Of a stretch of DNA of 64,000 bases, positions 1-55,247 are shown piece by piece. The translations under genes were made by a program, and so were the position numbers. Source of the DNA: Parcubacteria group bacterium. Lineage in GTDB: Bacteria; Patescibacteriota; Minisyncoccia; Phycocordibacterales; UBA2135. The notes below the pieces were generated by a model. That model saw only the letters and a program-made list of their open reading frames with translations. It had not been told where the DNA came from and searched no databases. The stretch is taken from positions 100,927 to 164,926 of the forward strand of contig JACQLQ010000004.1 in assembly GCA_016204045.1 (NCBI GenBank), written 5' to 3'. Each line of letters starts with the position of its first letter. The stretch's first letter is position 1.

Positions 1-1517
1 ACGAAAAGCTCGCTTTCCAGGCGGCAGACGACGAGCGTTTTGCCGCATACAAGAGTCTGATTCGCGAATCATTTGCAAAAAATCAATCTGTCTTCTTTTG
101 TCTCCCAACGATTGAAGACATAGAAGGAAGTCGCGCAACTCTAGAACGAGGAATAGAACAATACACGTTTGTACTTCATGGAGAATTGTCAAAGAAGGAA
201 ACAATCGCCCGCTGGCAGGCGACTCTTCGGGAAAAGCACCCGGTACTGATTATCGCCACCGGCCTTTTCCTCTCACTCCCCAGAGAAGACGTAAAAGTCA
301 TTGTGCTCGAAAAAGAGAGCTCATCAGCGTATAAGCTTTTGACACGACCATATGTCGATATTCGCACGGTCGCAGAGTTTTTGGCCGAAGCATCGGGAGC
401 AAAATTAATCCTGGGCGACATGCTCTTACAAACCGAGACTATTTACAAAAAAGAGGAGGGTGTGCTTGAAGCGTTTGCCCCGCTCAAATTCCGTTCCGTC
501 TCTCGGGCCGAGAATACATTAATTGACATGAACCGCTACCAAACCGAGGCGGGAGGAGAGAAATTCAGAATCTTAAGCGACGAAGTACTGCACCTTCTTG
601 GGCGACTACGAGAGAAGAACGAGCGACTACTCCTCTTTGTCTCTCGGCGCGGACTATATCCGATAACTACATGCTCCGACTGCAACACTGTTGTCGAGTG
701 CCAGCACTGCGAAGCCCCCCTCGTTCTGCACACACAGGGCAAGGGCGAGAAAGAGCGTTACCATGTATGCCACTCATGTGGGAAAAGTGTAAAGGCGCAA
801 GACCGTTGCCCTACCTGCGCAAGTTGGCGCTTGGTCCCTATTGGCATAGGCGCCGAGAATGTCTTCGAAGAGGCGAAGAAACACGCGGGAGATGCGTCGG
901 TTCTTCTCTTGAGCAAGGATTCGGCATCAACAAAGAAGAAGGCGCGAGAGATTATGAAGCAATTTTTTAGCGCTCCGAGTGCCGTACTTGTTGCGACACA
1001 GATGGTCATACCCTATCTTCGAGAAGAACTTAGTAATGTGGCAGTGGTATCTATTGATTCGTTGTTTACACTTCCTGACTTCAAGATAAACGAGCGCGTC
1101 TTCCGCATGCTCGCGGTGCTTAACGCGCGGACGAGTAGACGCTTCCTCATACAAACAAGACTCCCCGACACCCCCCTCTTCCGTCATGTGCTTCTGGGAA
1201 ACTTCCTCGAGTTCTACCGCGAGGAGCTTGCGGACCGAAAAGAGTTTAACCTCCCTCCATTTACGGTTCTCATCAAGGTCTCTTCTCTAGGCACAAAGGA
1301 TGCCATGGAGCGAAACGCGGAGAAGCTCAAGGAGTTGTTCTCACTGTATGAACCGACGATTTTCCCCGGATTTATTGCCAAAGTAAAAGGAAAGCATATT
1401 CTACATATGTTGATTCGCATGCCAAGAGAAAACTGGCCGGACCGGCATCTTGTCTCCATGCTCGGGGCGCTCCCGCCCGGATTTAAAATCCAAGTCAATC
1501 CAGAATCAATCCTTTAG
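1..1517 (+). CDS. priA: Primosomal protein N' (PriA), C-terminal part; 5'-partial at window edge
   Basis: Frame-3 ORF runs open from the window start into the listed 186..1517 ORF. Has a Cys4-Cys4 zinc-binding cluster (SDCNTVVECQHCEAPL...HVCHSCGK...DRCPTCAS) typical of the PriA Zn-finger region, followed by a C-terminal domain. Confidence 0.6.
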   Translation, partial: EKLAFQAADDERFAAYKSLIRESFAKNQSVFFCLPTIEDIEGSRATLERGIEQYTFVLHGELSKKETIARWQATLREKHPVLIIATGLFLSLPREDVKVIVLEKESSSAYKLLTRPYVDIRTVAEFLAEASGAKLILGDMLLQTETIYKKEEGVLEAFAPLKFRSVSRAENTLIDMNRYQTEAGGEKFRILSDEVLHLLGRLREKNERLLLFVSRRGLYPITTCSDCNTVVECQHCEAPLVLHTQGKGEKERYHVCHSCGKSVKAQDRCPTCASWRLVPIGIGAENVFEEAKKHAGDASVLLLSKDSASTKKKAREIMKQFFSAPSAVLVATQMVIPYLREELSNVAVVSIDSLFTLPDFKINERVFRMLAVLNARTSRRFLIQTRLPDTPLFRHVLLGNFLEFYREELADRKEFNLPPFTVLIKVSSLGTKDAMERNAEKLKELFSLYEPTIFPGFIAKVKGKHILHMLIRMPRENWPDRHLVSMLGALPPGFKIQVNPESIL

Positions 1518-2557: not shown

Positions 2558-3412
2558 ATGGATACGGAACGCGACACAAACATTCCTTTTGCCTTCTTTG
2601 GTACCGACAATTTTTCGGTCATTATTTTAGACAAGCTTACGAAGGCCGGTTTCGTGCCCTCACTTATCGTCACGGCCCCCGATCGAAGAGCTGGCCGCGG
2701 CATGAAGCTTACTCCCCCACCCGCTAAAGTGTGGGCCGAGAAAAACAAGATTCCTCTCCTCCAACCAGAAACATTCGATACATCGGTGCTTCAAAAACTT
2801 AAGGATGGGGGTTGCGAGCTTTTTGTTATCGCTTTCTATGGAAAGATTCTTCCTCAAGAAGCTTTAGACATTCCGAAACGCGGAACCTTGAACGTGCACC
2901 CCTCACTTTTGCCGGCATATCGTGGGCCATCCCCTGAACAGTCACAAATATTGGACGGAGTCACAAAGACGGGCGTGACGATTATTCTCGCCGATAACAA
3001 AATGGACCATGGGCCAATCGTTGGGAAAAAAGAATACACCTTGGAAACGCCCTACATACAATACAAAGACTTGCGAAGGGAGCTCTCGGCACTCGCTGGC
3101 ACATTGCTTACCGAAGTACTTCCCGAATGGACGCTTGGAAACATAGAACCACGAGAACAAGACCACACAAACGCGACGTATACGAAACTGCTTACAAAGG
3201 AAGACGGCCTTATACGTCTTACTGATGATTCAGAAACAAACTACAGAAAATTTCTTGCGTACAATCCCTGGCCAGGAACATATTTTTTCTCTGGAGACAC
3301 TCGAGTCAAAATCACCGACGCGGTGCTCGAAGATGGAGTGTTCGTCGTAAGGCACGTTACTCCTGAAGGAAAACGGGAAATGTCCTATGACGATTTCCTC
3401 CGTACTTCATAA
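2558..3412 (+). CDS. fmt: Methionyl-tRNA formyltransferase
   Basis: N-terminal formyltransferase fold (FFGTDNFS...), the HPSLLPAYRGPSP motif, and a C-terminal domain. Follows def. Confidence 0.9.
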   Translation: MDTERDTNIPFAFFGTDNFSVIILDKLTKAGFVPSLIVTAPDRRAGRGMKLTPPPAKVWAEKNKIPLLQPETFDTSVLQKLKDGGCELFVIAFYGKILPQEALDIPKRGTLNVHPSLLPAYRGPSPEQSQILDGVTKTGVTIILADNKMDHGPIVGKKEYTLETPYIQYKDLRRELSALAGTLLTEVLPEWTLGNIEPREQDHTNATYTKLLTKEDGLIRLTDDSETNYRKFLAYNPWPGTYFFSGDTRVKITDAVLEDGVFVVRHVTPEGKREMSYDDFLRTS

Positions 3413-3420
3413 TATAGTCC

Positions 3421-3517
3421 CCCGCAGCTTGCCGCAGAGGACTATATTTCGTCTTCCCCCGAAGAAAATGAAAATTGAAACATTTTCATTTTGCCCACTC
3501 GCTCGACGAAATAAAAA
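3421..3517. repeat. Copy 1 of a ~100-nt structured intergenic repeat (three hairpins plus a conserved tail)
   Basis: Near-identical to 36279..36380. Shared core is ctatatttcgtcttc...gaaaatgaaaattgaaacattttcattttgcccactcgctcgacgaaataaaaa. The 11-bp arms AAAATGAAAAT/ATTTTCATTTT are perfectly palindromic. Confidence 0.7.
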
Positions 3518-3540
3518 AGCCAGAGCTAGCGAGCTCTGGC
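3518..3540. terminator. GC-rich hairpin between convergent fmt (+) and the NUDIX gene (-)
   Basis: gccagagct-agcg-agctctggc is a perfect 9-bp stem lying directly between the two convergent stop codons. Confidence 0.5.
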
Positions 3541-4083
3541 CATATGCGCTTCGGCTTTCTCTGAATTAACCCTCAACTCCTCATCGCAGGCGCTCATCGC
3601 CCTTCTCACATGATCGGCAACATCTCCGATGAAGGCGTACTTGCCCAAATCTTTCTCCTTGAGCCATGCATAGTCGGTCATCTCTCTCCCCAACTGAACG
3701 GTTGATTCTGCGGCGAGAAGCGTCCAATACGTCAGGACGAGGGTAGGTGTACCGCTCTTGCGGATGAAGATAACATCGCCATCTTCAAGCAAACGAAGGG
3801 TATCGGGTGGAACATCAAATCCGCCCTCTTCTTTGATTTCTCGAGCCGCCGCACGACGGAGGCCACCTTCCCAAATCGGATGACTTTTGGTCTTCCTCTG
3901 ACGACCCCAGTCTTTTCTGGACATTTTGCCGCCGGCAATTGTCCACAAACCTGGGCCTTCGGCATCCTCATCCCTTCGCCTAAACACCAACGACTCCAAA
4001 ACGCCATCGGAGTCTCTACGAAGCACTACGGTAGTGGTAACCACAACGTATTCAGGAACAGATTCTGCAGATTCCCTAGTCAT
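3526..4083 (-). CDS. NUDIX hydrolase
   Basis: Nudix box GGLRRAAAREIKEEGG fits GX5EX7REUXEEXGU. ATG start at 4083. Confidence 0.8.
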   Translation of the reverse strand: MTRESAESVPEYVVVTTTVVLRRDSDGVLESLVFRRRDEDAEGPGLWTIAGGKMSRKDWGRQRKTKSHPIWEGGLRRAAAREIKEEGGFDVPPDTLRLLEDGDVIFIRKSGTPTLVLTYWTLLAAESTVQLGREMTDYAWLKEKDLGKYAFIGDVADHVRRAMSACDEELRVNSEKAEAHMARAR

Positions 4084-8315: not shown

Positions 8316-8777
8316 CTAAGCTGGCAATGAATCCTTGAGGATCCGCCGCGCGCGATGGTACTTGAGACGGCGCGTAATATCTTCTTCAGTCGGATTGGTG
8401 AACCTCGAAAGATCTGAATTGTCTTCCAAGTCCGCAATCTTGACCTTCCGGGCAAGGATCGGACCTTTCCGAATTCTTTCAATGAAGGCGAAATACCCCT
8501 CGTCGCTGCCCTTTTCTTCAGGGCGCTTCGTTAGGTACTCAAGCGCTTCTATCACGTCTTCGTCATAGCCCAGACCACGCATCAACTCCGCAGTGAGACC
8601 ACAATCTTCCCACGTGTCGTGAAGCGCCGCGGTCATGCGTTCCTTCTTTGTCTTTAAGAGAGGATTCAACATCACTCGTAGGGGGTGCAAATAATAAATG
8701 TCCCCCGCTTTGTCTTTCTGATTACCGTGAAGTCGTACACAAAGCGCAATTGCGTCGGCTAATGTCCGCTTTCGCAT
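8316..8777 (-). CDS. HD-domain phosphohydrolase (small alarmone-hydrolase / SpoT-hydrolase-like)
   Basis: ALCVRLHGNQKDKAGDIYYLHPLRV ... AALLHDTWED are the HD-domain His and Asp signatures of (p)ppGpp hydrolase domains. Confidence 0.6.
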   Translation of the reverse strand: MRKRTLADAIALCVRLHGNQKDKAGDIYYLHPLRVMLNPLLKTKKERMTAALHDTWEDCGLTAELMRGLGYDEDVIEALEYLTKRPEEKGSDEGYFAFIERIRKGPILARKVKIADLEDNSDLSRFTNPTEEDITRRLKYHRARRILKDSLPA

Positions 8778-8803
8778 AGTTCAGCTTCTCCTGGTCTGGG
8801 TCT

Positions 8804-9082
8804 TCATCCTAGGCGCGCCTTCGCTGCGGCAGAGTCTTGGGCATTTCCTCTTGCTTGAACAAGCGTTGCCCATTCCCCTTCGGACAGCTCACGAGCTGGT
8901 CCGTTGACCTCGATAAAGTAGTGCTCGTCTACGGTCGGCCAAAGGAAGTCGGCTGGAGTAAGAACACGAAGCGTGCCTCCATCGCGACCATTTGGACGAT
9001 CAGCCTCTATGACACGAGGCTTAGAATTGGTATACCCACGATTACCGTGTTGGTCTCTTGGACGTTCAATGAAGAACGGCAT
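8804..9082 (-). CDS. Hypothetical protein (92 aa)
   Basis: ATG at 9082 is preceded by GAGAAAGAGGGG, which is SD-like. No family recognised. Confidence 0.4.
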   Translation of the reverse strand: MPFFIERPRDQHGNRGYTNSKPRVIEADRPNGRDGGTLRVLTPADFLWPTVDEHYFIEVNGPARELSEGEWATLVQARGNAQDSAAAKARLG

Positions 9083-12606: not shown

Positions 12607-12650
12607 CCAATATTTTTGTCAAAAACTCTAATGTCCAAATAGTAAACAAA

Positions 12651-12688
12651 AAGCCGGGCACCCTGTGGGGGCGCCCGGCACTAAACAT
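12651..12688 (-). terminator. Terminator of the SPFH gene (minus strand)
   Basis: gccgggcaccctgtgggggcgcccggc hairpin with a T-run on the minus strand. Confidence 0.5.
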
Positions 12689-12714
12689 CACTTGAGAACA
12701 GGCAGAGTTGCCAG

Positions 12715-13542
12715 TTACCGGCCGACGTTGACGACCGGCGTGGCGGCGCCCTGGGTGACGACGGTGCACTTCCCGCCCTCACAAACACCGCGGAACGCCT
12801 TCAGCCACTCAAGCATCACGAACTGCTCAGTCGTGAGACCCATCTCCTTCTGGTAGGCCTTGTCGGCTTCTGCGCGGCTCTGTTCCGCCGCCTTGCGCTG
12901 ATCCTCGGCGAGCTTGCGCTGCTGCTGGGTCAGAATCGCCTGCTGCTGCGTCGCCGTCTCGATGCGCTGCGTCTTCACAGCGTCCGGCGGATTCGCCTTG
13001 CCGATGGTGACCTGGACCAAGCGAATCGGAATGCCCGCGTCCTTGATGTACGTCTCCATGGCGAGGCTGACTTCCGTATCGATTGCGTCGATGGCAGTCG
13101 TCTCGATCGCGACCTCGTTCATGCCGTGTTTGCGAACGGCCTGACGGATGCGATTGTTGAATTCGGCCGCGACGTTGTTCTTGTACCAGTCTGGGCCGAA
13201 CTTCTCGATGATGCGCACCGAGTCCAGGACCTGAAGCCGGATGACCGCGTCGAAGTCGAGCGGCACGCCGTCGTTCGACATGAAGTCGTCGAAGTGTGCG
13301 ACGAACTGCTGGGGTCGCATGTCGACGTTGACACGTTGCGTCGTCCATGCAAGGAGCTTGCGCCCCGCCTTGACCGGAACCGGATCGATCCCGCCATCGC
13401 CGAAGATGATCGGCTTCCGGATGAGGACGGTCTCCTCGCCGGCGGTCGGGTGCGCAGATGGCAAGATGCCAGTCAACCAAAGCGCCATACATAGGAGGAA
13501 GAGTGCGATGCCCGCCGCAACTGTAGCAATCACTGCTTTCAT
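12715..13542 (-). CDS. SPFH/band-7 (stomatin/prohibitin/HflC-like) membrane protein
   Basis: N-terminal TM anchor, an SPFH core, and a C-terminal coiled-coil rich in Q/A/E/K. SD AGAGGAGA precedes the ATG at 13542. GC-rich. Confidence 0.7.
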   Translation of the reverse strand: MKAVIATVAAGIALFLLCMALWLTGILPSAHPTAGEETVLIRKPIIFGDGGIDPVPVKAGRKLLAWTTQRVNVDMRPQQFVAHFDDFMSNDGVPLDFDAVIRLQVLDSVRIIEKFGPDWYKNNVAAEFNNRIRQAVRKHGMNEVAIETTAIDAIDTEVSLAMETYIKDAGIPIRLVQVTIGKANPPDAVKTQRIETATQQQAILTQQQRKLAEDQRKAAEQSRAEADKAYQKEMGLTTEQFVMLEWLKAFRGVCEGGKCTVVTQGAATPVVNVGR

Positions 13543-15367: not shown

Positions 15368-15547
15368 TTGGTGGAAAATAAAGGTTCCTCGGGGTAAGTC
15401 CTGAGGTATTGTCGGAACTCACTCGCCTGCCTGCGGCAGGCGGGACTCGTACCCCGCGTGCGGCAAGCCATGCGGTAGTAACCTTTGATACGACTTCGCT
15501 CGGACGCGATGAAAACGTGTTTTCATCGCGCTCCTCGCTCGTCGTAA
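15368..15547. ncRNA. Candidate small structured RNA in an unusually long convergent spacer
   Basis: About 180 nt bracketed by two terminators. It holds three strong hairpins: cctcgggg..cctgagg; cgcctgcc-tgc-ggcaggcg; and cgcgatgaaaac..gttttcatcgcg with a 12-bp stem. No protein-coding signal. Confidence 0.2.
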
Positions 15548-15579
15548 TAAAAAACCCGCGAGCCACGAATGGCTGCGGG
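15548..15579 (-). terminator. Rho-independent terminator of the antiporter gene (minus strand)
   Basis: Minus-strand cccgcagccattcgtggctcgcggg followed by TTTTTT. Confidence 0.6.
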
Positions 15580-15585
15580 AGATAA

Positions 15586-16821
15586 TCAAACCCTTAAGAA
15601 CTTGAGAAGCGTCCCCATGCTCAACCCCTGAACAATTGAGAAGATCACCACGACGTAGGTAATGATGATGAGGGCATCCCTCACCTCTCCGTGTGGGAGC
15701 GCCAAGGCAAGCGCAAATGAGACGCCGCCGCGCAGCCCTCCCCATGTGAGAATGAGCACTGCATGTTCGCTAAACTTCTTCACTACTCCTGTGAGCACAG
15801 AAGCGGCCCAGACAGAGAGGAATCGTGCCGAAAGCACGAGTGGTATCGCCGACAAACCGGCGAGGATATACCCGAGCTTAACGTTCAAGAGAAGCGCCTG
15901 GAGGCCGACGAGTACAAAGAGTGCGGCATTCAACATGTCATCGATCACCTCCCAAAAGAGGTCGAGATGTGCACGTGTCTCATCTGACATGCCGAAGTTG
16001 CGACCATGGTTGCCAATGAAAAGTCCGGCAGTCACAATCGCAAGCGGTCCAGACACATGAAGCAGATTCGCAAGTGCGTAGCCTCCCGCGACAAGTGCAA
16101 GCGACATCAAAATCTCAATGTGGTAATTGTCGACGCGCTTAATGAATTGGAAGGCAATCCAGCCGATGGCAAGACCGTAAATGATGCCGCCGAACGACTC
16201 GCGGAGTAGCGTCGTAAGCACATAATCAACCGAGAAAGTCGCAGTCCCCATGAAAACCCCGAAAAAGACCAAGAAGAGCACAATGCCGGCTCCGTCGTTC
16301 AAGAGCGACTCGCCGGCAATCTTCATCCGAATGCTATCATCGGGCATTTTCGAATGCTTGAGAAGCGCCAAGACTGCGATCGGATCAGTGGGCGAGATGA
16401 GCGCTCCAAAAAGGAAGCACGCCACGAACGGAATCTCGAATCCGAAAAGTGGGAAAAGAAAGTACGCCCCAACGCCGATGATCGCGGCTGAAATGCAGAC
16501 GCTCACGGTTGAGAGCACACCAATCGCCCAGCGCTGCTCAAAGAATGCGTTTAGGTTGATGTGCAATGCTCCGGCAAACAAGAGGAAACAAAGTACGATC
16601 TTTAAGATTGCTTCACTGAAATCGATAGCACCCACAGCATTCCTTGCCATCTCCGGAATGAACTCGAGCCCCAAGAGATCCAGCGCCGCCAATGACATTG
16701 AGAAGACGAGGGAGATCAACATGAGCCCCAGAGTCTTGGGGAGCTTTATGTACGCATAGTTCACATAGCTCAAGACGGCTGTGACGACAAGGAGTAGTGC
16801 TAGAACGTTAAAGAGTCCCAT
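15586..16821 (-). CDS. nhaP: Na+/H+ antiporter, CPA1 (NhaP-type)
   Basis: 10-12 TM helices with the ISPTDP and LLNDGAG motifs. ATG at 16821 with GAGGTGG upstream; the listed GTG at 16827 is an alternative. Confidence 0.8.
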   Translation of the reverse strand: MGLFNVLALLLVVTAVLSYVNYAYIKLPKTLGLMLISLVFSMSLAALDLLGLEFIPEMARNAVGAIDFSEAILKIVLCFLLFAGALHINLNAFFEQRWAIGVLSTVSVCISAAIIGVGAYFLFPLFGFEIPFVACFLFGALISPTDPIAVLALLKHSKMPDDSIRMKIAGESLLNDGAGIVLFLVFFGVFMGTATFSVDYVLTTLLRESFGGIIYGLAIGWIAFQFIKRVDNYHIEILMSLALVAGGYALANLLHVSGPLAIVTAGLFIGNHGRNFGMSDETRAHLDLFWEVIDDMLNAALFVLVGLQALLLNVKLGYILAGLSAIPLVLSARFLSVWAASVLTGVVKKFSEHAVLILTWGGLRGGVSFALALALPHGEVRDALIIITYVVVIFSIVQGLSMGTLLKFLRV

Positions 16822-16905
16822 TACCACCTCACTAGTTACGCGTTACGTCCTTTTGCTTTTTATAACATTTTTCACTCTGTGTCAATATTTTGATTTTATT
16901 GTAGC

Positions 16906-34491: not shown

Positions 34492-34845
34492 TTAGTCGCC
34501 GCCACCAAGGCGTCGGATGATCTTCACGACCTGGGTATCGCTCCCAAGTGTGTACTGCCCCGTTAGGAAGAGACAGCGCAACCACGCGTGGCTGCCGAGC
34601 ACCGGACTGTACTTGTCGCGGGCGACCTTCTCCAGTTCAGCCGGAGTCATTTCCCGAAGCTGGGTTGGGTCGATGAGATACGTATCCCATCCGCCCGCCC
34701 ACAACACCGTGACCTCGCGGCCTGATTCTTTGGTCATGTGACACCTCCTGCTTTGCGAGCAGAAGATGGTCAAGACCAATTCTTGATTATCTATCTGCTC
34801 AATAGTTAACAAAGTAAGCTTAGCATAAAAATAGAGCCACGTCAA
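34492..34845 (-). CDS. Hypothetical protein
   Basis: ORF with a probable internal start (MTKESGREV...). Confidence 0.3.
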   Translation of the reverse strand: MTWLYFYAKLTLLTIEQIDNQELVLTIFCSQSRRCHMTKESGREVTVLWAGGWDTYLIDPTQLREMTPAELEKVARDKYSPVLGSHAWLRCLFLTGQYTLGSDTQVVKIIRRLGGGD

Positions 34846-34916
34846 GCTCCACGAGTAAGATTTTTTAAAAAGAAGAACCCCGCGCTCCGAAGAGACGCGG
34901 GGGTGTGGGGAGGGAC

Positions 34917-35366
34917 TTACCTCCCCACCTCGGACAGCGAGACACTTTCGCCGTAGTAGCCGTTCGACGATCCATACCAGCGAATCGTCACTGATCCTTT
35001 CTGAGTCGCGAACTCATAGAACGTCCAAGTCCCACTTTCGTCGGCATTGGGGTCATCCTGCGTCCGCTCTTCCGCGCGAATGATGGGTGCATGGACAAGG
35101 TCGTCCAAGTCCCCAGCAATGTCCTCGATCGAGACCGCCTCGCAGCAGTCCTGCTCGTGGTACATGAGGAACTTTCGCCCCCCTTTAGCATGGAAGATAA
35201 TCTCGTCCTTCGACCCTGGTATTTCGACTTTCTCGAAGGTGAGGCCGAGCAACTCAGTCAGCGTGGTGTATGCGTACATGGAGAGTCCTCCTAGGGGTGA
35301 GACATCAGGCTCTTCCCAAGAGGTATCTCCAATTAAAATACTATCATAAAATATAGTTTTTGTCAA
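34917..35366 (-). CDS. Hypothetical protein (149 aa)
   Basis: Clean ORF. Acidic protein. Confidence 0.4.
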   Translation of the reverse strand: MTKTIFYDSILIGDTSWEEPDVSPLGGLSMYAYTTLTELLGLTFEKVEIPGSKDEIIFHAKGGRKFLMYHEQDCCEAVSIEDIAGDLDDLVHAPIIRAEERTQDDPNADESGTWTFYEFATQKGSVTIRWYGSSNGYYGESVSLSEVGR

Positions 35367-35431
35367 TATCCCTTTGGCGGGGTTTGAATATAAAAAAACC
35401 GCCGATGTAGCATCGGCGGGCGTTTAAAAAA

Positions 35432-36193
35432 CTATTCAACATAGACGCGGGTCTCATCTCCACCACTCAAGGCAAAGTCGAAATACGTCATCGAGACACC
35501 ACCCACCTCTTCGGCGCCAGTCCCGACCAGTGTAACGTCACCCACATCAAGCGTTGTGCCTGCTAACGCCTTCAATGCTGACGCCTTCAATGCAAAGAGG
35601 GCGCTTTCATGGGGAAGAGAAATTGCCGAACGGAGCTGGTCGGGTCTGATGTCGACGTCCCATACACTGCGCTCCACCTCGACGAGTTCATCGTCCTTAA
35701 TCGCGAGAATGAGACCCGCATCGGGAGCAAGCCCTCCAGAGTGATCAGTCAAAAGAACAGCATTGCCAATAACGTGCATCGGCACTTCCCCTGCCTGCGT
35801 GCCCCCAGACCATGTTTCAGTTGGGGCGACTTTTACTGCGCCAAAATAGCGCTTGGTTCTGCGGGAAATAAATTTTTCCCCAAGGCGTACTTCTCGGAAA
35901 GATAGTTCCCTAGAGTTCGACTGCGCCAACCAACCTAGATCTTTCAGGATCTGACACTCGCTGCAGAGGTTCGACTTGCTGACATAACCCTCGGAAACGA
36001 CGATGTCGCCACCGCAAGCGACGCAATCAAAGTGCATTGGTGAACCTGCGCGGAGAGCGGAGTTGTCAATCCGCTTCCTCGTCTTGTTTTCTGCGCGCCT
36101 GCTCTGCCAAGCCGCAAGAGCCGCCGCCTTTCCTTGTGTGGTCGCCAAAGACATCCGTGTCTCCTTCCGTGTCTTGTTTTCTGAAGAGGTCAT
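35432..36193 (-). CDS. Hypothetical protein with CxxC...CxxC zinc ribbon
   Basis: FDCVACGG...CSECQ zinc-ribbon in the N-terminal third. Confidence 0.4.
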   Translation of the reverse strand: MTSSENKTRKETRMSLATTQGKAAALAAWQSRRAENKTRKRIDNSALRAGSPMHFDCVACGGDIVVSEGYVSKSNLCSECQILKDLGWLAQSNSRELSFREVRLGEKFISRRTKRYFGAVKVAPTETWSGGTQAGEVPMHVIGNAVLLTDHSGGLAPDAGLILAIKDDELVEVERSVWDVDIRPDQLRSAISLPHESALFALKASALKALAGTTLDVGDVTLVGTGAEEVGGVSMTYFDFALSGGDETRVYVE

Positions 36194-36278
36194 CTCTCCA
36201 GATTGCTATCGGCAAATGTAATAGGAAAAGTTCACTCTGTCAAGATGTCGGCCGCGCGGAGGACGTAAATATAGCCCC

Positions 36279-36380
36279 CTGCGGCTTGCCGCAGGGTATT
36301 CAACCTATATTTCGTCTTCGCTCGGAGAAAATGAAAATTGAAACATTTTCATTTTGCCCACTCGCTCGACGAAATAAAAA
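36279..36380. repeat. Copy 2 of the ~100-nt structured intergenic repeat
   Basis: Core is about 95% identical to 3421..3517. Differences fall in hairpin 2 and preserve pairing (tcttc/gaaga versus tcttcg/cggaga, with a T.G wobble). Followed by the GC hairpin gccgccttgtggaagggcggc. Confidence 0.7.
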
Positions 36381-36413
36381 GCCGCCTTGTGGAAGGGCGG
36401 CTTCCGAAGGCGG

Positions 36414-36782
36414 TTAATGCGAATTCAGATAAATGTTCAGACACCCGTCGGAATTAATTTCCCTTATGTAGATTACCCGCATCTCGGAACCCCACGGCAC
36501 TCTAAGATTCAGGCGATCAACCTTGTGCGCCGCCATTGCCTCGCGAATAGCCTTGAGCAGTGCCTTCTGGAGGGGATGCGTCATAGACGTCCAACGAGCA
36601 AGCAGTTCACGCTCCCGAAAGAAGAGTTCCTTGCCGGTGTCTGCCGCGGGAACGCGGAATTCTGTATCTCTCGTGCCGCGGAAAGCTCTGCACACAGACT
36701 CCATGTTCCACAACTCATCTTTTGCATAAGGGACGAGGTCGTTGAGTCCACCCTCAAGAGCGGGTTCCGATTTGTTCAGCAT
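36414..36782 (-). CDS. Hypothetical protein (122 aa)
   Basis: Clean ORF. No family recognised. Confidence 0.4.
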   Translation of the reverse strand: MLNKSEPALEGGLNDLVPYAKDELWNMESVCRAFRGTRDTEFRVPAADTGKELFFRERELLARWTSMTHPLQKALLKAIREAMAAHKVDRLNLRVPWGSEMRVIYIREINSDGCLNIYLNSH

Positions 36783-36891
36783 TGTGACTCCTGTCGCTCA
36801 AGTTGCCGCCCTGGACGCCCGGTTGGGCACGCTTGAGGGAAAGAGGCGTCCGGATTTTTTATATCATAAAATACGAAAATTGTCTGCCTTC

Positions 36892-37155
36892 TTATTTGGA
36901 GCGATGCGGACATCCAGCCCAACAACAGGGCCGACGCATCCCGCCTCTAAGCTTCGAGAGCGCCTTCGCAATACGGATACTCCTCGTCTCCGCTTTTTTG
37001 CCAGAGGTAACCCAGCAGATCCACTCATTGCGTGCGAGTGGTGTAATGTCCTCCCATACTGCTCGTGCCGCCTTGTCAGAAGCAATAGCCTTCCGTAAAT
37101 CCGTTGGCACTGTATGCAAAACTTCTTTTTGAGTCATAGATTCATTTTGCATCAA
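36892..37155 (-). CDS. YdeI/OmpD-associated (bacteriocin-protection) family small protein
   Basis: WEDITPLARNEWICWVTSGKKAETRSIRIAKAL...RRPCCWAGCPHR resembles the conserved YdeI-family C-terminus. Confidence 0.45.
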   Translation of the reverse strand: MMQNESMTQKEVLHTVPTDLRKAIASDKAARAVWEDITPLARNEWICWVTSGKKAETRSIRIAKALSKLRGGMRRPCCWAGCPHRSK

Positions 37156-37222
37156 TTGCGCTGTTAGATAAAGTTAACTTTCTAAAAAGAAAAACCGTCC
37201 AGCGGAAGCCGGGCGGTAGTGA

Positions 37223-37438
37223 TTAACGTGCAATTTGGATGAGCCAACCCAATTGGTAGAGCGTGGCGAAGCCGTCCATGCCAGCAAGAGCGAACAAGGC
37301 AATCTTTATGAAGACATTCACCCAACCGTATTTTGACCAGATAACACCAAGGATGAAAAAAGCGATAGCGCTTATCAAAAGCAGCAGGTCGGAATTGGCG
37401 AAGAAGTCCATTGCAGCGCCTTTCCTTTGTCGGTGCAA
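37223..37438 (-). CDS. Small membrane protein (71 aa)
   Basis: Two TM helices. Confidence 0.35.
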   Translation of the reverse strand: MHRQRKGAAMDFFANSDLLLLISAIAFFILGVIWSKYGWVNVFIKIALFALAGMDGFATLYQLGWLIQIAR

Positions 37439-37523
37439 ACACCAAAAACTAAGTTGTTTATATTCTATTCTCTATAGTGTGTCAAACCTTGCTCGAGAAA
37501 TTAAAAAGGGTGAGCACCTATCG

Positions 37524-37982
37524 CTAGGTGCCCCCCTGAAGTCGTGACCGGATCCGCGTGAGCCGCTCGCAGAACTCGCGTTCGGTAAGGACCGTGTCGC
37601 TCGGATTTTGAGTCCCGATTGAGTGGGTCAGTACCGCATCGCCTGTCGCGAGCAGCGCCTCACGGAAAGATTGATTCTCGGCGAGAGCGTCAAACGCCCT
37701 GTCGAGTAGCTCCTGGTATTGCTTGCCGTGACGGTCGTACGCCACGCCATTCCACCAGAGCTTTTGAACTCGCTTCCACGCTCCGCTCTGTTCCTGGCCG
37801 CGGCGCTTGGCGCTGAAGCCAATGAGCTTGCACACTTCGACTTGGATGCGGGGGTCGTCGTACTTGAACGCCTGCAACAACCCCTCCATCGAAGAACACT
37901 TCACCCCGTCAAACACAAACGAACGAGGTGCGAAGTTGGTCACTTCCGAAGCGGGGTATGCCGACCTCGAACCGATGTCCAC
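37524..37982 (-). CDS. Possible NADAR (YbiA/DUF1768)-like protein
   Basis: Weak resemblance (FAPRSFVFDGVKCSSMEGLLQAFKY...WWNGVAY...ALLATGDAVLTHS) to the NADAR N-glycosidase/ADP-ribose-processing fold. Low confidence. Confidence 0.3.
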   Translation of the reverse strand: MDIGSRSAYPASEVTNFAPRSFVFDGVKCSSMEGLLQAFKYDDPRIQVEVCKLIGFSAKRRGQEQSGAWKRVQKLWWNGVAYDRHGKQYQELLDRAFDALAENQSFREALLATGDAVLTHSIGTQNPSDTVLTEREFCERLTRIRSRLQGGT

Positions 37983-39000
37983 GATGCACCTCCTGTGTCA
38001 GGTGGAAAGTAAATAGTATCATATAAAACAGCTTCTGTCAAACCAACAAATTCTTGCGAAACGTTTTGTTTGGTAAAGAACGGTGCCTGTCCCCGTTTCC
38101 GTTTTGAATTGACTTATTGTCCCCAGGTTTGCTAGGATATCGGTTCTATACGTTTTACAATATAAGGAAAGCAAAACACCCCTTTCGGGATGTTTGCTCG
38201 TAAGATTTCCTTACGTTTACGGAAAACCGTTCTTGCTTTGCAGGGGCGGTTTTCGTTTTCCCTGCGACAAGATTACTTGTCCCTTTTTGCATCGCCGTAC
38301 CCGGGAAGAGGCAAGTGTTCAACAGTTGAGGATTTCTTTTCTCGAGCTTTCTCGAGTTCCTCAAACTGACCTTCCTTGTTCCGTCCGGCGAGCCTTGATT
38401 GTCTTTCAGACATCTTGGCATGGTTTTGTCAGTCCATAAACTGCCAGCTCTACAGGGGTCTAAGCTGGTTATGTGCTAAGCGTCCCCTGTCGAGGGAACG
38501 ACCATTTCTCAGAGGAGAAACTTGGCAAACAAAAAGCTCTATTGGCCGAGGTTTGTGGGTTACATCAGTTCCCCGATGTTCCCCTGCGTTAGCAGGGTTT
38601 TCACCCCGCAAACACCCGCCACTAGAGCTTTTGACTTTTGTTCGAGTATTTGTTTTGCTAAACCATCGGCCGCCTTTCTTTTAAACCCCATAACCTCGAA
38701 AGACAGAAGGTTACCTCCTAAGTATACGCCTACTGGATAAAGTCAACAAATCCAATTCTGTGGATAACCAGAATAATGATGGAGACGGGGGTGTAAAAAT
38801 GGAAAATGGCCAAGGACCGTGGTACCAGCACTTAGATACCGTACAGGTGTGCCTTTGTGACTGTTGAGGGACTGACCGAAGAAGGGACGTGTTTTGTTCG
38901 GGAAACCTCCTTCACGAAAGAGCGCGTCTCACTGATTGCCTCACGTATAAAACCCGAGGTCGCAGAGTTCTGAGCCATCTCATCAAAGTCCTGAAAGGGC
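37983..39000. other. ~1-kb interval without credible coding potential; candidate large structured ncRNA or decayed gene
   Basis: Only short conflicting ORFs on both strands. Multiple stable hairpins, e.g. caggggtctaagc...gcgtcccctg and cccctgc-gtta-gcaggg. No tmRNA or 5S signature was recognised. Confidence 0.3.
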
Positions 39001-40719: not shown

Positions 40720-41037
40720 ATCGTTGATTTATTTGAGTTCTCTGTAAGAGAAACTTTTCTACTAATTCAAACCGCTCTGTAACGACAAAACCCGACCTTC
40801 GTTTCTCTTACAGACACGATTTGATCCTCCTACCCTAGCATACTTCCGCAAACTTTGCAAGCCCCCACACCTTTCCTCGCAATATTGTCCCCGACAACGC
40901 GCTTTGCGCCTTGCGGGGAAAGGTGTGGGGGCAAGCCCTCTTTTTCGTTGCTTTTGTGCCTTTTTCTGGTATTCTCTAGATACATTCCCCGGTACCTGTC
41001 CGCAGGCAGAGCGCAGTGTACAATGGTGTATGTTTAT

Positions 41038-41109
41038 TCCCCGGTAGCGCAGCGGTAGCGCAGCGCGCTGTTAACGCGTTGGTCGTAGGTTCGAATCCTA
41101 CCCGGGGAG
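41038..41109 (+). tRNA. tRNA-Asn (anticodon GTT)
   Basis: Cloverleaf with acceptor tccccgg/ccgggga, D-arm gcgc-agcggta-gcgc, anticodon arm gcgcg-ctGTTaa-cgcgt, and T-arm gtagg-ttcgaat-cctac. Discriminator G. No encoded CCA. Confidence 0.85.
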
Positions 41110-41286
41110 TTTGAGTGAAACGAAGAACGACCCGGGTAGGATTGGGAGAGGGTCGGAGAACGGGAGTTCTCCGTGGAGGAACGCAGCTCCTCTGCTGGGC
41201 AGAGGAGCGTTGAGAACCGTGGGTTCTCAAGGAGGAGTCCGCCAATCGGCGGACGACGACGTCTTACTCCGTGGAGCTTAGTTAAT
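41110..41286 (+). other. Array of four consecutive stem-loops immediately 3' of tRNA-Asn
   Basis: cggagaac-ggga-gttctccg; gctcctctgc-tggg-cagaggagc; gagaacc-gtg-ggttctc; gtccgcc-aat-cggcggac. Confidence 0.3.
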
Positions 41287-44573: not shown

Positions 44574-45152
44574 ATGAGAAAGATTGTCCTCGATGTCGAA
44601 ACAAAAAATATGTTCTCGGATGTCGGCGGGAACGACCCGACCCTTTTGGATATGTCGCTCGTCTGCATCTACGACTCCCTCACCGATTCGTACTCCTCGT
44701 ATCTCGAGGCGGAGTTGCCAAATCTGTGGCCAATTCTCGAGCAGTCGGATGTTTTGATCGGTTTTAACTCCGACCATTTCGACATACCGCTCTTAAACAA
44801 GTACTACCTGGGCGACCTGACACAAAAGAAAAGTCTCGATCTCCTTGCAGAGGTCAAGAACGTACTTGGTCGCAGGATTAAGCTCGACACCATCGCAGAG
44901 GCGACACTCGGCGTTAAGAAGTCTGGCAATGGCCTTCAAGCCATCGCATGGTGGAGGAATGGTGAAATCGATAAAGTGCGACAATACTGCATCGACGACG
45001 TGCGCATCACCAAAGAAATCTACGAGTACGCGCTCGCAAACGGCCATCTCAAATACAAAGACTGGGACGGTGGGGTACTGCAAATACGACTCAACACCTC
45101 AAAATGGGAGGAGAAGAAAGCGGGAGCCGTGACACAATCACTCCCATTCTAA
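44574..45152 (+). CDS. DEDDy-type 3'-5' exonuclease (DnaQ/RNase D-like)
   Basis: Exo I VLDVETKN, Exo II GFNSDHFDIPLL, Exo III YCIDDVRITKEIYEY. The longer listed ORF starting at 44073 is antisense to iscS and is rejected. Confidence 0.7.
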   Translation: MRKIVLDVETKNMFSDVGGNDPTLLDMSLVCIYDSLTDSYSSYLEAELPNLWPILEQSDVLIGFNSDHFDIPLLNKYYLGDLTQKKSLDLLAEVKNVLGRRIKLDTIAEATLGVKKSGNGLQAIAWWRNGEIDKVRQYCIDDVRITKEIYEYALANGHLKYKDWDGGVLQIRLNTSKWEEKKAGAVTQSLPF

Positions 45153-45991
45153 CCCTGGTGAGCAGTAGCCAACAACGCCTGTGCCTCTTTGTTGATCTTT
45201 GAGGCAACGGCTTTTTTGATACCGAACTTGGTCTCTAGGTCTTCCGCGGTGTAGGGAATGAGGTCTTGCGCAAGCATCATGCCGTGCTTTGCAAATATTT
45301 CAAGGGTGTGGCTATTAACCGATGGGAGGACTGTTACCGGATAGAGCGCGTGTTTGGCGATTAGGTTTTCGAGCGCTTCTCCGTTCGGATGGCTCCAACT
45401 TGTTGTCTTAATGTTTTTGCAGTTTGCGTATTGGATCGCGCTCAAGGTCAGCTTCGTGTTGGTGATGACCCATGCATAGTGCTTTGCTTTGCCACCCTCC
45501 TTCTTCTCCTCCACGCGCCTAATGTCGTCCAATCGCGCCCACGCATAGGCAACCACATCGACGTGCGTTTTCAAATGTGGTTTGTTTTTGTATTTTGCCT
45601 CGATGAAATAGTGCTCGTCTCCTTTGTAAGCAACAATGTCGACTTCGTGTGTGACACACTCGCCTCGTAGAAACTGGTTCCGTGCCGTCGTGTACCCCTC
45701 TGCACGTAGGATTGCCTCGACGAATTGCTCAAAGTAGAAACCCGCTGGGCCAAGCTCCGCCATACCACGTTTCAGGCTGTAGCGGGCGGCGAGACCAATG
45801 TTTTCCTTGACCAAGTGCCGGAGTGCCTCCCGAAAGATCTCTGTTGTTGTTGCCCCTGGAGAAAGGTCTTTTGCGACTGCGTTGCAAATCTTGTCTGCCA
45901 CCTCACTCGGGGCGCCCGAGGCGCGCAAAGAACCGCAAAGCTTCTCGTGCTCGAAGAGTTCTTTCTCGCCTGTTGCCTTAATAATTTCCAT
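45149..45991 (-). CDS. ATP-cone domain fused to Mrr-type restriction-endonuclease-like (PD-(D/E)xK) domain
   Basis: N-terminal MEIIKATGEKELFEHEKLCGSLRASGA is ATP-cone-like. FEQFVEAILRAEGY...EVDIVAYKGDEHYFIEAKYK matches the Mrr_cat core D...ExK. Confidence 0.5.
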   Translation of the reverse strand: MEIIKATGEKELFEHEKLCGSLRASGAPSEVADKICNAVAKDLSPGATTTEIFREALRHLVKENIGLAARYSLKRGMAELGPAGFYFEQFVEAILRAEGYTTARNQFLRGECVTHEVDIVAYKGDEHYFIEAKYKNKPHLKTHVDVVAYAWARLDDIRRVEEKKEGGKAKHYAWVITNTKLTLSAIQYANCKNIKTTSWSHPNGEALENLIAKHALYPVTVLPSVNSHTLEIFAKHGMMLAQDLIPYTAEDLETKFGIKKAVASKINKEAQALLATAHQG

Positions 45992-51241: not shown

Positions 51242-52057
51242 TTATAAACCCAAGCGATAGATATCAAACGAGTTTTCTCCCTCAAACATATCCGAGGGGT
51301 TGGGCAGAAAGACCTTCGTCCGCATAAGTTCTGCTGTCGCGTCGTTTACCAGGCGGTGAAAGATTGCGAACTCTTCATCGCATTTGTCGAAATCAATAGT
51401 ATAGCGCCGCATCTGCGATGACCCGTCCGCATTCTTAGTCTTCTTGCACTCTTGCAAGATGAAGCGCCGGACCGGCCGCTTAAATTCACTTTGCACTGTG
51501 TAGTAGTTGAAGATCGCCTGGATGACGAAGAGTGTCTTTTGCGAGCCCCCGGCACTCCACGAATCGACAAACTTGTGGTCAATAATGTCGAGCGCCTTCG
51601 GGTCGACACGCGACTCGACGACCAAGTCAGAGACTGCCTTAATGGGGAGCGGCAGACCCTTCACATTAGCCATTCCCCTCACCTCGACGCCAAGCACTTT
51701 GTGCCGGGGTGGCCGAGCAAGATAAAAAGCGATGGCACGAAGATAGTCGCGCTCCATCTGGAGACGTTTTTTCTTTTTTGCAAGACGCGAGGTGGCTTTC
51801 CCAAAGTTAATTTCGAAATCAGGGACATTGCAGAGGTAATCGAGACCGAGCTGTATAGCCCCTTCTTTCTCTATACCACCATAGAAGTGTTGGAGCGCAA
51901 CATGCCCGGCGCGCCCGATAATTGAGGCCGGGGTTCCCGGTGTGTCATATACTTCTTCGACATAGCGCTTGTACCATGCCAAGGGATTCCGGAGAAAAGT
52001 TATGAGCGACGAGTAACTCCAGTGTGCAATGGGAAACTCCTTCCCAGAAGATTTCAT
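51242..52057 (-). CDS. Hypothetical protein (271 aa), possible nuclease-like fold
   Basis: No secure motifs. ALDIIDHKF could be part of a PD-(D/E)xK core. Confidence 0.3.
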   Translation of the reverse strand: MKSSGKEFPIAHWSYSSLITFLRNPLAWYKRYVEEVYDTPGTPASIIGRAGHVALQHFYGGIEKEGAIQLGLDYLCNVPDFEINFGKATSRLAKKKKRLQMERDYLRAIAFYLARPPRHKVLGVEVRGMANVKGLPLPIKAVSDLVVESRVDPKALDIIDHKFVDSWSAGGSQKTLFVIQAIFNYYTVQSEFKRPVRRFILQECKKTKNADGSSQMRRYTIDFDKCDEEFAIFHRLVNDATAELMRTKVFLPNPSDMFEGENSFDIYRLGL

Positions 52058-53975: not shown

Positions 53976-55247
53976 TTAATAACTCTCGAGTCTTCGTGCG
54001 CGGTCGTGGTGACGAATCTTCTCGTGTGCCTTGGCTTCGATTTGGCGAATACGTTCACGGGTCACACCAAACTCACGCCCCACCTCTTCCAAGGTGTGGA
54101 CAGTGCCGTCAATAAGGCCGTGACGCATTTCGAGAATCTTGCGCTCCTTGGGAGAAAGATCATCCAATATCTCTTTGATTTGATCTCGAAGAATACGTAG
54201 TGATGCCTCTTGCGATGGAGAATCTATCTTTTCGTCTTCGATAAAGTCGCCGAAGGTTGATTTCTCATCATCCTCGCCCACCGGACTCTCGAGCGAAATG
54301 GTGTCTTGGTCAATGTTTTGAATTATGTAAATCTTTTTCACGTCGAGCCCCATCTCTGCGGCAATCTCTTCTGCCAAGGGGTCGCGACCCAAGTCTTGGG
54401 CAAGCCGACGCACCACCTGCTTGTACTTCGCGATGGTCTCCACCATGTGGACAGGAATACGAATGGTTCGCGACTGGTCAGCGAGCGCGCGCGTAATTGC
54501 CTGCCGAATCCACCATGTAGCATATGTTGAAAACTTGAAGCCTTTGGTTGGTTCGAATTTCTCAATCGCTTTGTATAGCCCAATGTTCCCCTCTTGGATG
54601 AGGTCGAGGAGGGTCAGATCGCGGCTTCGGCCGACGTAGCGCTTCGCAATAGAAACAACGAGACGGAGGTTCGCCTTGGCGAGGAGGTGACGCGCGTCTT
54701 CGTCCCCTTCTTTAATGCGCCGCGCGAGCGACTTTTCTTCGGCGGCAGAAATGAGCGAGTAGCGGCCGATCTCTTTAAGATACATCTGCACAGAGTCGAT
54801 AGAGGTCTCTTCATGAGCAGTAATCTTGCCGTCAAACATAGGCGTCTCATCTGCAGCAAGGAGCGACCCCGCTTCCACAAGCTCGACTCCTTCGGCGCTC
54901 AAACGTTCGTAGACGCGCTCCAGAAACACAATATCATCTTCAATGGTAGGAAATTCCTTGAGGAGTTCGTCGTGGGTCACAAAACGACGCTCACGTCCTC
55001 GGATAATGAGCTTTTCGAGCTTTGCGTCACGCGCCTCCTTCTCTTTCTTGCTGACAGGAGCTTTGGAGACGGCCTTGCCCTTACCACGCGCCACACGAGT
55101 CTTGGGGGCCTTTTTCTTGCCTTTCTTGGCTACAGGAGCCTTCTTTGCCTTAGAAGCACGCTTGCCCTTCATCCGCAAACGGGATGATTTGGAAGCCTTT
55201 TTACCCGTTTTGCGGGCACGACGGATACGCTTTAGGAGCTTTGCCAT
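53976..55247 (-). CDS. rpoD: RNA polymerase primary sigma factor with Lys/Ala-rich N-terminal extension
   Basis: Region 2 [15 protein letters not shown], and region 4 [23 protein letters not shown]. Located downstream of dnaG. Confidence 0.9.

Follow-up and report, generated by a model that had tools for sequence, protein, structure and literature searches.

The tiny genomes of CPR/Patescibacteria are generally considered repeat-poor, and a multi-hairpin element that sits at more than one intergenic site of a Parcubacteria group genome raises the question of what it is and on which strand it works. An earlier reading made from the letters alone (the sequence-only reading) had reported two copies in the 64-kb stretch of DNA analysed here, which we call the window, and had offered three options for them: a small mobile element of the MITE or REP kind, a conserved sRNA or 3'-UTR module, or a protein-binding site. 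A repeat element turned out to fit best, although not as a simple REP.

Three copies of a two-domain element in the window

Positions 3442-3517 and 36305-36380 share a 76-nt core of 96% identity, in which a stretch of 53 nt is identical and for which shuffled sequences are expected to give 0 matches, in agreement with the near-identity (about 95% over the core) and the approximate coordinates that had been proposed. The copy number of two was too low, however, since a covariance model of the family detected a third copy at 15378-15553 (-). All three copies lie on the minus strand, 12-21 kb apart amid housekeeping genes, and their density of about one copy per 20 kb is unusual for such genomes. 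A fourth match at 54226-54302 was rejected as a chance match, being weak in score and located inside the rpoD coding sequence.

The element is about 105-200 nt long and consists of two domains. In the minus-strand sense, domain 1 is a rod-like hairpin that reads UAUUUCGUC - GAGCGA - GGAGCG...apical hairpin...CGUCC - GAGCGAA - GACGAAAUA, with extra hairpins inserted at its 3' loop in some copies. Domain 2 is either a hairpin or a four-way junction with three hairpins; its closing stem is AAAGGUU/AACCUUU, or AUAUAG/CUAUAU in the case of copies 1 and 2, and within it are a (C)AAUA(CC) bulge and hairpin loops that are mostly gCUUGc on the functional strand.

Copy 3 (15378..15553, -) has the full form and is the most complete, as judged from the covariance model (74.1 bits, E=6e-23), the fold and an alignment with loci L001, L003, L005 and L007 from other genomes. 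Its domain 1 (15484-15551) displays a covaried outer stem, UUACGAC/GUCGUA, and in its domain 2 (15378-15490) the AAAGGUU/AACCUUU stem surrounds three hairpins, two of which follow (A/C)UACC or AAUACC. Copy 2 (36267..36379, -; 70.3 bits, with RNA and DNA folds) has a short form: domain 1 (36306-36378) combines the UAUUUCGUC/GACGAAAUA outer stem, the GAGCGA loop opposite GAGCGAA and an AT-rich apical hairpin, and domain 2 (36267-36312) is made of an AUAUAG...CUAUAU stem, a UUGAAUA bulge and a hairpin, CCCUGCGG-CAAG-CCGCAGGG. Copy 1 (3412..3517, -; 62.7 bits and fold) also has a short form, and it is degenerating: the 3' loop of its domain 1 (3443-3515) is mutated to UUCGGGGGAA, and its domain 2 (3412-3447) has become a single continuous 17-bp hairpin with three G·U pairs, from which the bulge is gone. 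Since copy 1 departs from the conserved 3' loop and has lost the domain-2 bulge, it is a decaying copy rather than a case of compensatory evolution, and the earlier picture of a 95% core with intact hairpins does not hold for it. We infer that copies 1 and 2 are shortened derivatives, the first of which is already in decay. The domain-2 loop of these two copies (36277-36296 and 3426-3435) reads CAAG on the functional strand versus CUUG in nearly all relatives, and the apical part of the domain-2 hairpin seems to have been flipped in the short copies of the window.

The fold covaries around a near-invariant loop and is strand-specific

The long AT hairpin and the outer GC hairpin that had been noticed from the letters are real, with folding z-scores of -6 to -7 for copies 1 and 2, and DNA energy parameters predict the same fold as RNA parameters. 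The outer stem, the inner stem and the apical hairpin of domain 1 all covary: 86% of the cells are paired, compared to 31-48% in slid controls, 17 of the 25 pairs show double changes and none of 500 shuffles reached the observed values, in an alignment that had been fitted to the model. The outer stem, for example, is UUACGAC/GUCGUA in copy 3, UUUCAAC/GUUGAA in L101 and UUACGUC/GACGUAA in L028. The family is thus not a set of many degenerate copies lacking structural covariation, the outcome that would have reduced it to a simple REP.

The purine loops GAGCGA and GAGCGAA are near-invariant, in genomes of 33-50% GC, and their central C-G is replaced by U-A in two independent variants, one with GAGUGA and GAACGA and the other with CAGUGA and GAACGAA. 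From the aligned sequences, our preferred reading of the loop is that two tandem sheared G·A pairs flank a 2-bp Watson-Crick mini-helix, with one extra A; the order of pairs would be G·A/A·G, G-C/C-G, G·A/A·G and then the single A. Inspection of the alignment argues against a kink-turn, as the GA steps are symmetric about the 2-bp helix, with one extra A and no 3-nt bulge. Such an invariant loop implies a specific protein partner.

Concerning the strand, the copies reach 62-74 bits under the family model when read on the minus strand, compared to 15-16 bits for the plus strand, the minus-strand sense gives 37 G·U pairs versus 15 A·C pairs, and the conserved loops are purine-rich in that sense. 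These three observations point to a strand-specific fold whose functional sense is the minus strand in the window, and not the plus-strand RNA sense that had been claimed. The two substitutions that separate copies 1 and 2 in the outer GC hairpin (hairpin 1 of the sequence-only reading) break pairing on the plus strand and yield G·U pairs and a 17-bp helix on the minus strand only. The hairpin 2 of that reading (tcttc-N-gaaga) is not a conserved helix: it is the complement of the near-invariant loop, CCGAGCGAAGA, and is conserved in no relative. Copy 2 has the consensus sequence there and the three departures (TTCGGGGGAAGA) all belong to copy 1, so that they are not compensatory.

The window copies start in the T-tracts of intrinsic terminators

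In the minus-strand sense, the three copies of the window (3/3) start inside the T-tract of the intrinsic terminator of the co-oriented upstream gene. The terminator hairpin at the end of the Nudix gene (3526-4083, -; Pfam NUDIX), found at 3518..3541 (-) by a terminator scan, leads into TTTTTATTT, with which copy 1 begins. The terminator scan also gave the hairpin at 15554..15579 (-) behind the Na+/H+ exchanger gene (15586-16827, -; Pfam Na_H_Exchanger), whose TTTTTT tract runs straight into copy 3. At copy 2, the hairpin at 36380..36402 (-) belongs to an upstream gene encoding a 122-aa ORF (36414-36782, -), and its T-tract (36379-36372, TTTTATTT) continues into domain 1; this terminator was missed by the scanning tool because its loop exceeds 8 nt, and it was identified by sequence reading and folding. 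The GC hairpins that adjoin the copies therefore show the GC-rich stem-loop, the T-tract and the location 3' of a co-oriented gene that define a terminator, confirming the intergenic position beside a GC-rich terminator hairpin that had been described for copies 1 and 2. Across 22 copies of the family, about 10 come immediately after a terminator T-tract and all have a T-rich 5' flank. The orientation is the same as that of the upstream gene in about 13 and opposite in 9. Element orientation does not track local GC skew (11 positive and 13 negative).

We found no sigma-70-like promoter upstream of the three window copies, and a promoter-like site for the downstream gene is located past copy 2. 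The flanking genes are unrelated housekeeping or hypothetical genes, with no consistent neighbour and no conserved context. Transposases, integrases and reverse transcriptases were found neither among the approximately 50 proteins of the window, using Pfam, nor in the relatives' loci inspected by ORF listing; a RAYT (Y1 transposase) or Y1 HUH TnpA gene was likewise not found within the 64-kb window, and no integrase or relaxase was seen near the copies.

Several features of the surrounding genes deserve mention. The final base of copy 1 also serves as the third position of the fmt stop codon (window 3410-3412), and the Fmt C-terminus reads ...FLRTS in the window versus ...FLRQV in a syntenic relative, so that the insertion of copy 1 may have reshaped the last fmt codons. 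Around copy 2 (34492-38000), small minus-strand genes have no annotation or a phage-type one, including a DUF7448 protein, a T4 Gp30.3-like protein (PF08010), an OmdA-like protein and a 253-aa ORF with a zinc ribbon, and this gene cluster may be a small accessory island. An Mrr-like restriction endonuclease with an AF1548-like C-terminal domain and a PD-(D/E)XK nuclease are encoded at 45149-45991 and 51242-52057, among housekeeping genes. The sole Rfam match in the window at the gathering score is a tRNA-Asn at 41037-41110.

The family is spread over other Patescibacteria

The element is present in at least 15 other Patescibacteria contigs, in some of them as tandem 80-nt units. A first search pattern, built from the flanks of the central hairpin, gave 8 loci in four Patescibacteria MAGs. 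A looser pattern applied to metagenomes gave about 10 further distinct loci among many matches, most of which were chance matches in high-GC contigs and were filtered by GC content and hairpin energy. The covariance model then added copies that lie outside the search pattern, bringing the collection to about 26 distinct domain-1 sequences from 18 Patescibacteria loci, and one additional copy came from an unbiased sample of three related genomes. Two pattern scans of the IMG/VR viral contigs gave no true copies.

Tandem arrangements are best illustrated by L071 (contig Ga0082335_1000026, 510 kb), where an array at about 790-1172 (-) comprises four 80-nt domain-1 units directly behind a terminator; the units are linked by a conserved AAUUAUUGUACCCGGUUAUA, and the last one, which has a 42-nt hairpin inserted in the 3' loop, leads into a canonical domain 2. 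On the same contig, two adjacent domain-1 units lie at 8613-8870 (-), between fusA and tuf in the str operon region, and in the second of them an insertion of about 125 nt splits the conserved loop between CCGA and GCGAAG. In L101 (2104-3220), three domain-1 copies occur together with two divergent 82-nt tandem units on the opposite strand, which have CAGUGA/GAACGAA loops. The L101 copies flank a stretch with strings resembling P4 of RNase P RNA (GGAGGAAAGUCCGAACAC ... ACAGAAUUCGGCUUACAG), and this stretch has no Rfam match to RNase P at the gathering score.

Two other loci place the element next to tRNA genes. In L078, the 5' end of a tRNA gene shares 4 nt with a divergent domain-1 copy at 1699-1821 that is located on the other strand and has GAGUGA/GAACGA loops, and a full element lies about 100 nt away in the opposite orientation. 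In L006, a domain-1 copy at 1461-1690 is found between a tRNA gene and a stretch that resembles the 5' part of a tRNA (CCAACTGAGCTGAGCGCAC, complementary strand) and that may be a partial tRNA duplication.

Element positions are not conserved between relatives

Within one MAG, the copies L003 and L007 are about 97% identical over about 155 nt and have unrelated flanks, which points to recent copying, as does the 53-nt identity of copies 1 and 2. In addition, two independent assemblies of one population stop at window position 3492, inside the stretch that is shared by copies 1 and 2.

We then compared orthologous sites. In a syntenic relative (L161), whose Fmt is 58% identical, the terminators are intact and the element is absent at both the fmt|Nudix and the Na_H-exchanger sites. 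Conversely, a PF1765-like gene and hpf are separated by a copy in L162 and by a spacer of 23-24 nt in L160 and L161. These filled and empty sites in L161 and L162 show that element positions are not conserved; since the syntenic relative is only 58% identical in Fmt, loss cannot be distinguished from gain at its empty sites. Exact-protein look-ups for strains with empty sites returned identical contigs or none, the nearest Fmt relative being 64% identical. The L162 copy (12640-12820) is preceded by an extended -10-like TGCTATAAT and followed by the hpf (Ribosomal_S30AE) start codon, and would belong to a 5' leader there.

Comparing near-identical copies of one genome gave the boundaries TTAT...TTAT. 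In most copies both boundaries show TTAT or TAT, a candidate target-site duplication whose bases also belong to predicted stems; the two sides agree in L078 (TTAC) and differ in L002 (TTGT versus TATAT). Terminal inverted repeats were not found, as the reverse complement of the left end UUUCGUCGAGCG does not match the right end ...GGAACCUUUAU.

A proposed mobile repeat behind terminators, and its alternatives

Considering that the element occurs in many dispersed copies, that some of these decay, that orthologous sites are empty in relatives and that assemblies break inside it, we favour the hypothesis (with a probability of roughly 55%) that it is a small non-autonomous mobile repeat, active as a folded single strand and inserting into the T-rich DNA that follows terminators. 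In such a scenario, a protein encoded elsewhere would recognise the domain-1 loop on single-stranded nucleic acid, which may be single-stranded DNA (as for HUH/Y1 transposases acting on IS200/IS605 ends or on REPs) or an RNA intermediate, and would copy the element into TTAT-like sites. Insertions behind terminators would be harmless and could thus persist, and read-through transcripts whose 3' ends fall in the element may gain stability, an effect also proposed for REPs. Against this hypothesis count the absence of transposase, integrase and reverse transcriptase genes from the window and from the loci inspected, the lack of terminal inverted repeats, the differing flanks of L002, the fact that the empty sites come from a relative with only 58% Fmt identity, and the near-invariance of the loops across genomes, which, like the inserted hairpins and the gCUUGc tetraloops, would also suit an RNA under selection.

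The alternative that survives best, which we regard as possible but tentative, is that the element is a multicopy functional structured ncRNA, transcribed from the minus strand in the window, with a loop and a junction that bind a host protein or RNA and with copies that are gene duplicates; its place behind terminators would then reflect read-through transcription or a 3' module that protects transcripts. Strong covariation surrounding invariant non-Watson-Crick loops is what one would expect of such an RNA, and so is the maintenance of the loop sequences across distant Patescibacteria, including in copies outside the search pattern. The prevalence of gCUUGc tetraloops on the functional strand, the expansion hairpins inserted at loops, the similarity of the tandem units to multi-module RNAs and the L162 copy between its -10-like element and the hpf start codon also speak for it. 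However, the three window copies lack an upstream promoter and the element begins within a terminator T-tract, copies are found in mixed orientation to their neighbours in a gene context that is not conserved, orthologous sites are empty in relatives, some copies are degenerate and no Rfam family matches.

A bolder and unlikely proposal is that the element is either a nucleic-acid-guided mobile unit that chooses terminator tails by base pairing or a new class of protein-binding ncRNA of this radiation. The A-rich junction between domains 1 and 2 (AAAUAUA or AAUUAAA) is complementary to the 5' flank UUUAU, which is usually the terminator T-tract, and also to the element's own 3' end UUUAU, and the invariant double G·A loop could serve as a handle for an enzyme. 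If true, a guided unit would represent a new terminator-targeting mobility mechanism in reduced CPR genomes.

Less likely still is a single-stranded DNA site for recombination or nicking, similar to attC or oriT, that would be used by a site-specific recombinase or relaxase and would not transpose. Its appeal lies in the attC-like architecture (outer stem, unpaired central spacer, inner stem and variable terminal structure), in a fold that is equally good under DNA parameters and in the fact that the sole Rfam near-match, the lactis-plasmid RNA (27 bits), is probably an oriT. This near-match was nevertheless not repeated by copy 3 or by the other loci, the AAC/GTT triplets that define attC are missing in nearly all copies, the copies lie 12-21 kb apart among housekeeping genes rather than in cassette arrays, and no integrase or relaxase is nearby. 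Finally, a plus-strand RNA made of three hairpins and a tail, with a compensatory hairpin 2, is very improbable: although the Watson-Crick helices fold on that strand as well, with z-scores of -6 to -7, and the domain-2 loop of copies 1 and 2 is CUUG there, its model scores are far lower (15-16 against 62-74 bits), its conserved loops turn into pyrimidine stretches that cannot pair, the G·U pairs favour the minus strand and its hairpin 2 finds no counterpart in any relative.

Returning to the mobile repeat that we favour, a covarying fold around an invariant double G·A loop in distant lineages would make it either a new small mobile DNA or, if the RNA alternative proved right, a new RNA class, in both cases with a protein partner. 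In practical terms, the element breaks CPR assemblies and marks terminators, and the covariance model can be used to map its spread.

Comparison with known systems

As the sequence-only reading had suggested, the window and the other loci were searched with the Rfam 15 covariance models, at gathering and at E-value thresholds, and apart from one weak match of copy 2 no family was found over the copies. Literature searches on the motif sequence and on repeats of CPR genomes yielded no description of the element.

Several known systems were rejected as candidates. A classical DDE-derived MITE would have terminal inverted repeats, which are absent here; a group IIC intron is far larger than the element; and type III antitoxin repeats would be followed by a toxin gene, which is absent. 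The element is also not a TIGR-Tas stem-loop array, since its variable parts are paired and covarying, its loops are invariant rather than spacers and it has no Tas-like neighbour.

The Rfam family that comes closest is RF01742 (lactis-plasmid RNA), which matches copy 2 with 27 bits (E=0.024), below its gathering threshold of 70 bits, and does not match copy 1, copy 3 or L001-L008. Like the element, it has a long hairpin with a 2-bp helix between two GA/GA(A) loops, then a second GC hairpin, and the 3' strands are very similar (GAGUGAAAGACGAAUA against GAGCGAAGACGAAAUA). The lactis-plasmid motif lies directly upstream of mobC, slightly overlapping it, in 349 mobilizable plasmids (for example L159 2501-2604, from the Lactococcus plasmid NC_008504.1), and its second hairpin is followed by AAGTGCG, resembling MOBQ-type nic sites. 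The Rfam motif is thus probably a plasmid origin of transfer and not an RNA. Integron attC sites share with the element a structure that is conserved over sequence (an outer box, an unpaired spacer, an inner box and a variable terminal structure), a position 3' of genes and activity as a single strand. They differ from it in their AAC/GTT core, in place of which most copies have a CGUC/GACG outer stem, and in their cassette arrays and nearby IntI.

BOX elements of Streptococcus pneumoniae are built as boxA-boxB(n)-boxC, with variable tandem internal modules and a stable predicted fold, and they are intergenic and noncoding. Our element resembles them in its modularity, its variable tandem modules, its stable predicted fold, its intergenic location and its absence of coding capacity. 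The ends of BOX elements are partly complementary to each other, and we know of no conserved G·A loop in them; their sequence is unrelated and they belong to another phylum. Miniature elements derived from IS200/IS605 (PATEs) also lack terminal inverted repeats, have hairpins at both ends and are strand-specific, as is the case here. Insertion beside a short conserved oligonucleotide (TTAT-like) is plausible for our element, as for PATEs, and a segment next to a hairpin foot complements the flank; a TTAT-like 5' flank is common but overlaps the domain-1 stem. Unlike in PATEs, however, the end hairpins are dissimilar and reach the very ends instead of being subterminal, and the window contains no TnpA.

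REP/BIME and REPIN elements, which are tagged by GTAG or CGTC and mobilised by RAYT Y1 transposases, are the last system to be considered. REPs are imperfect palindromes of 20-40 bp with an unpaired terminal GTAG/CGTC tag, and the roles proposed for them are to be substrates in single-stranded form and to make the upstream mRNA more stable (PMC3733652). With its 105-200 nt and its CGUC that is paired with GACG in 26/26 copies, the element has the wrong size for a tagged REP and holds as a stem what should be an unpaired tag; it further differs in having a purine internal loop in direct orientation on both arms and a second domain with a junction. What it shares with REP, BIME and REPIN elements is that it is small, abundant, extragenic and hairpin-forming, mostly located downstream of genes or between convergent genes, and either single or clustered. 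Altogether, the copies constitute a real and apparently undescribed family of structured Parcubacteria repeats, which falls within the broad class of small interspersed structured repeats.
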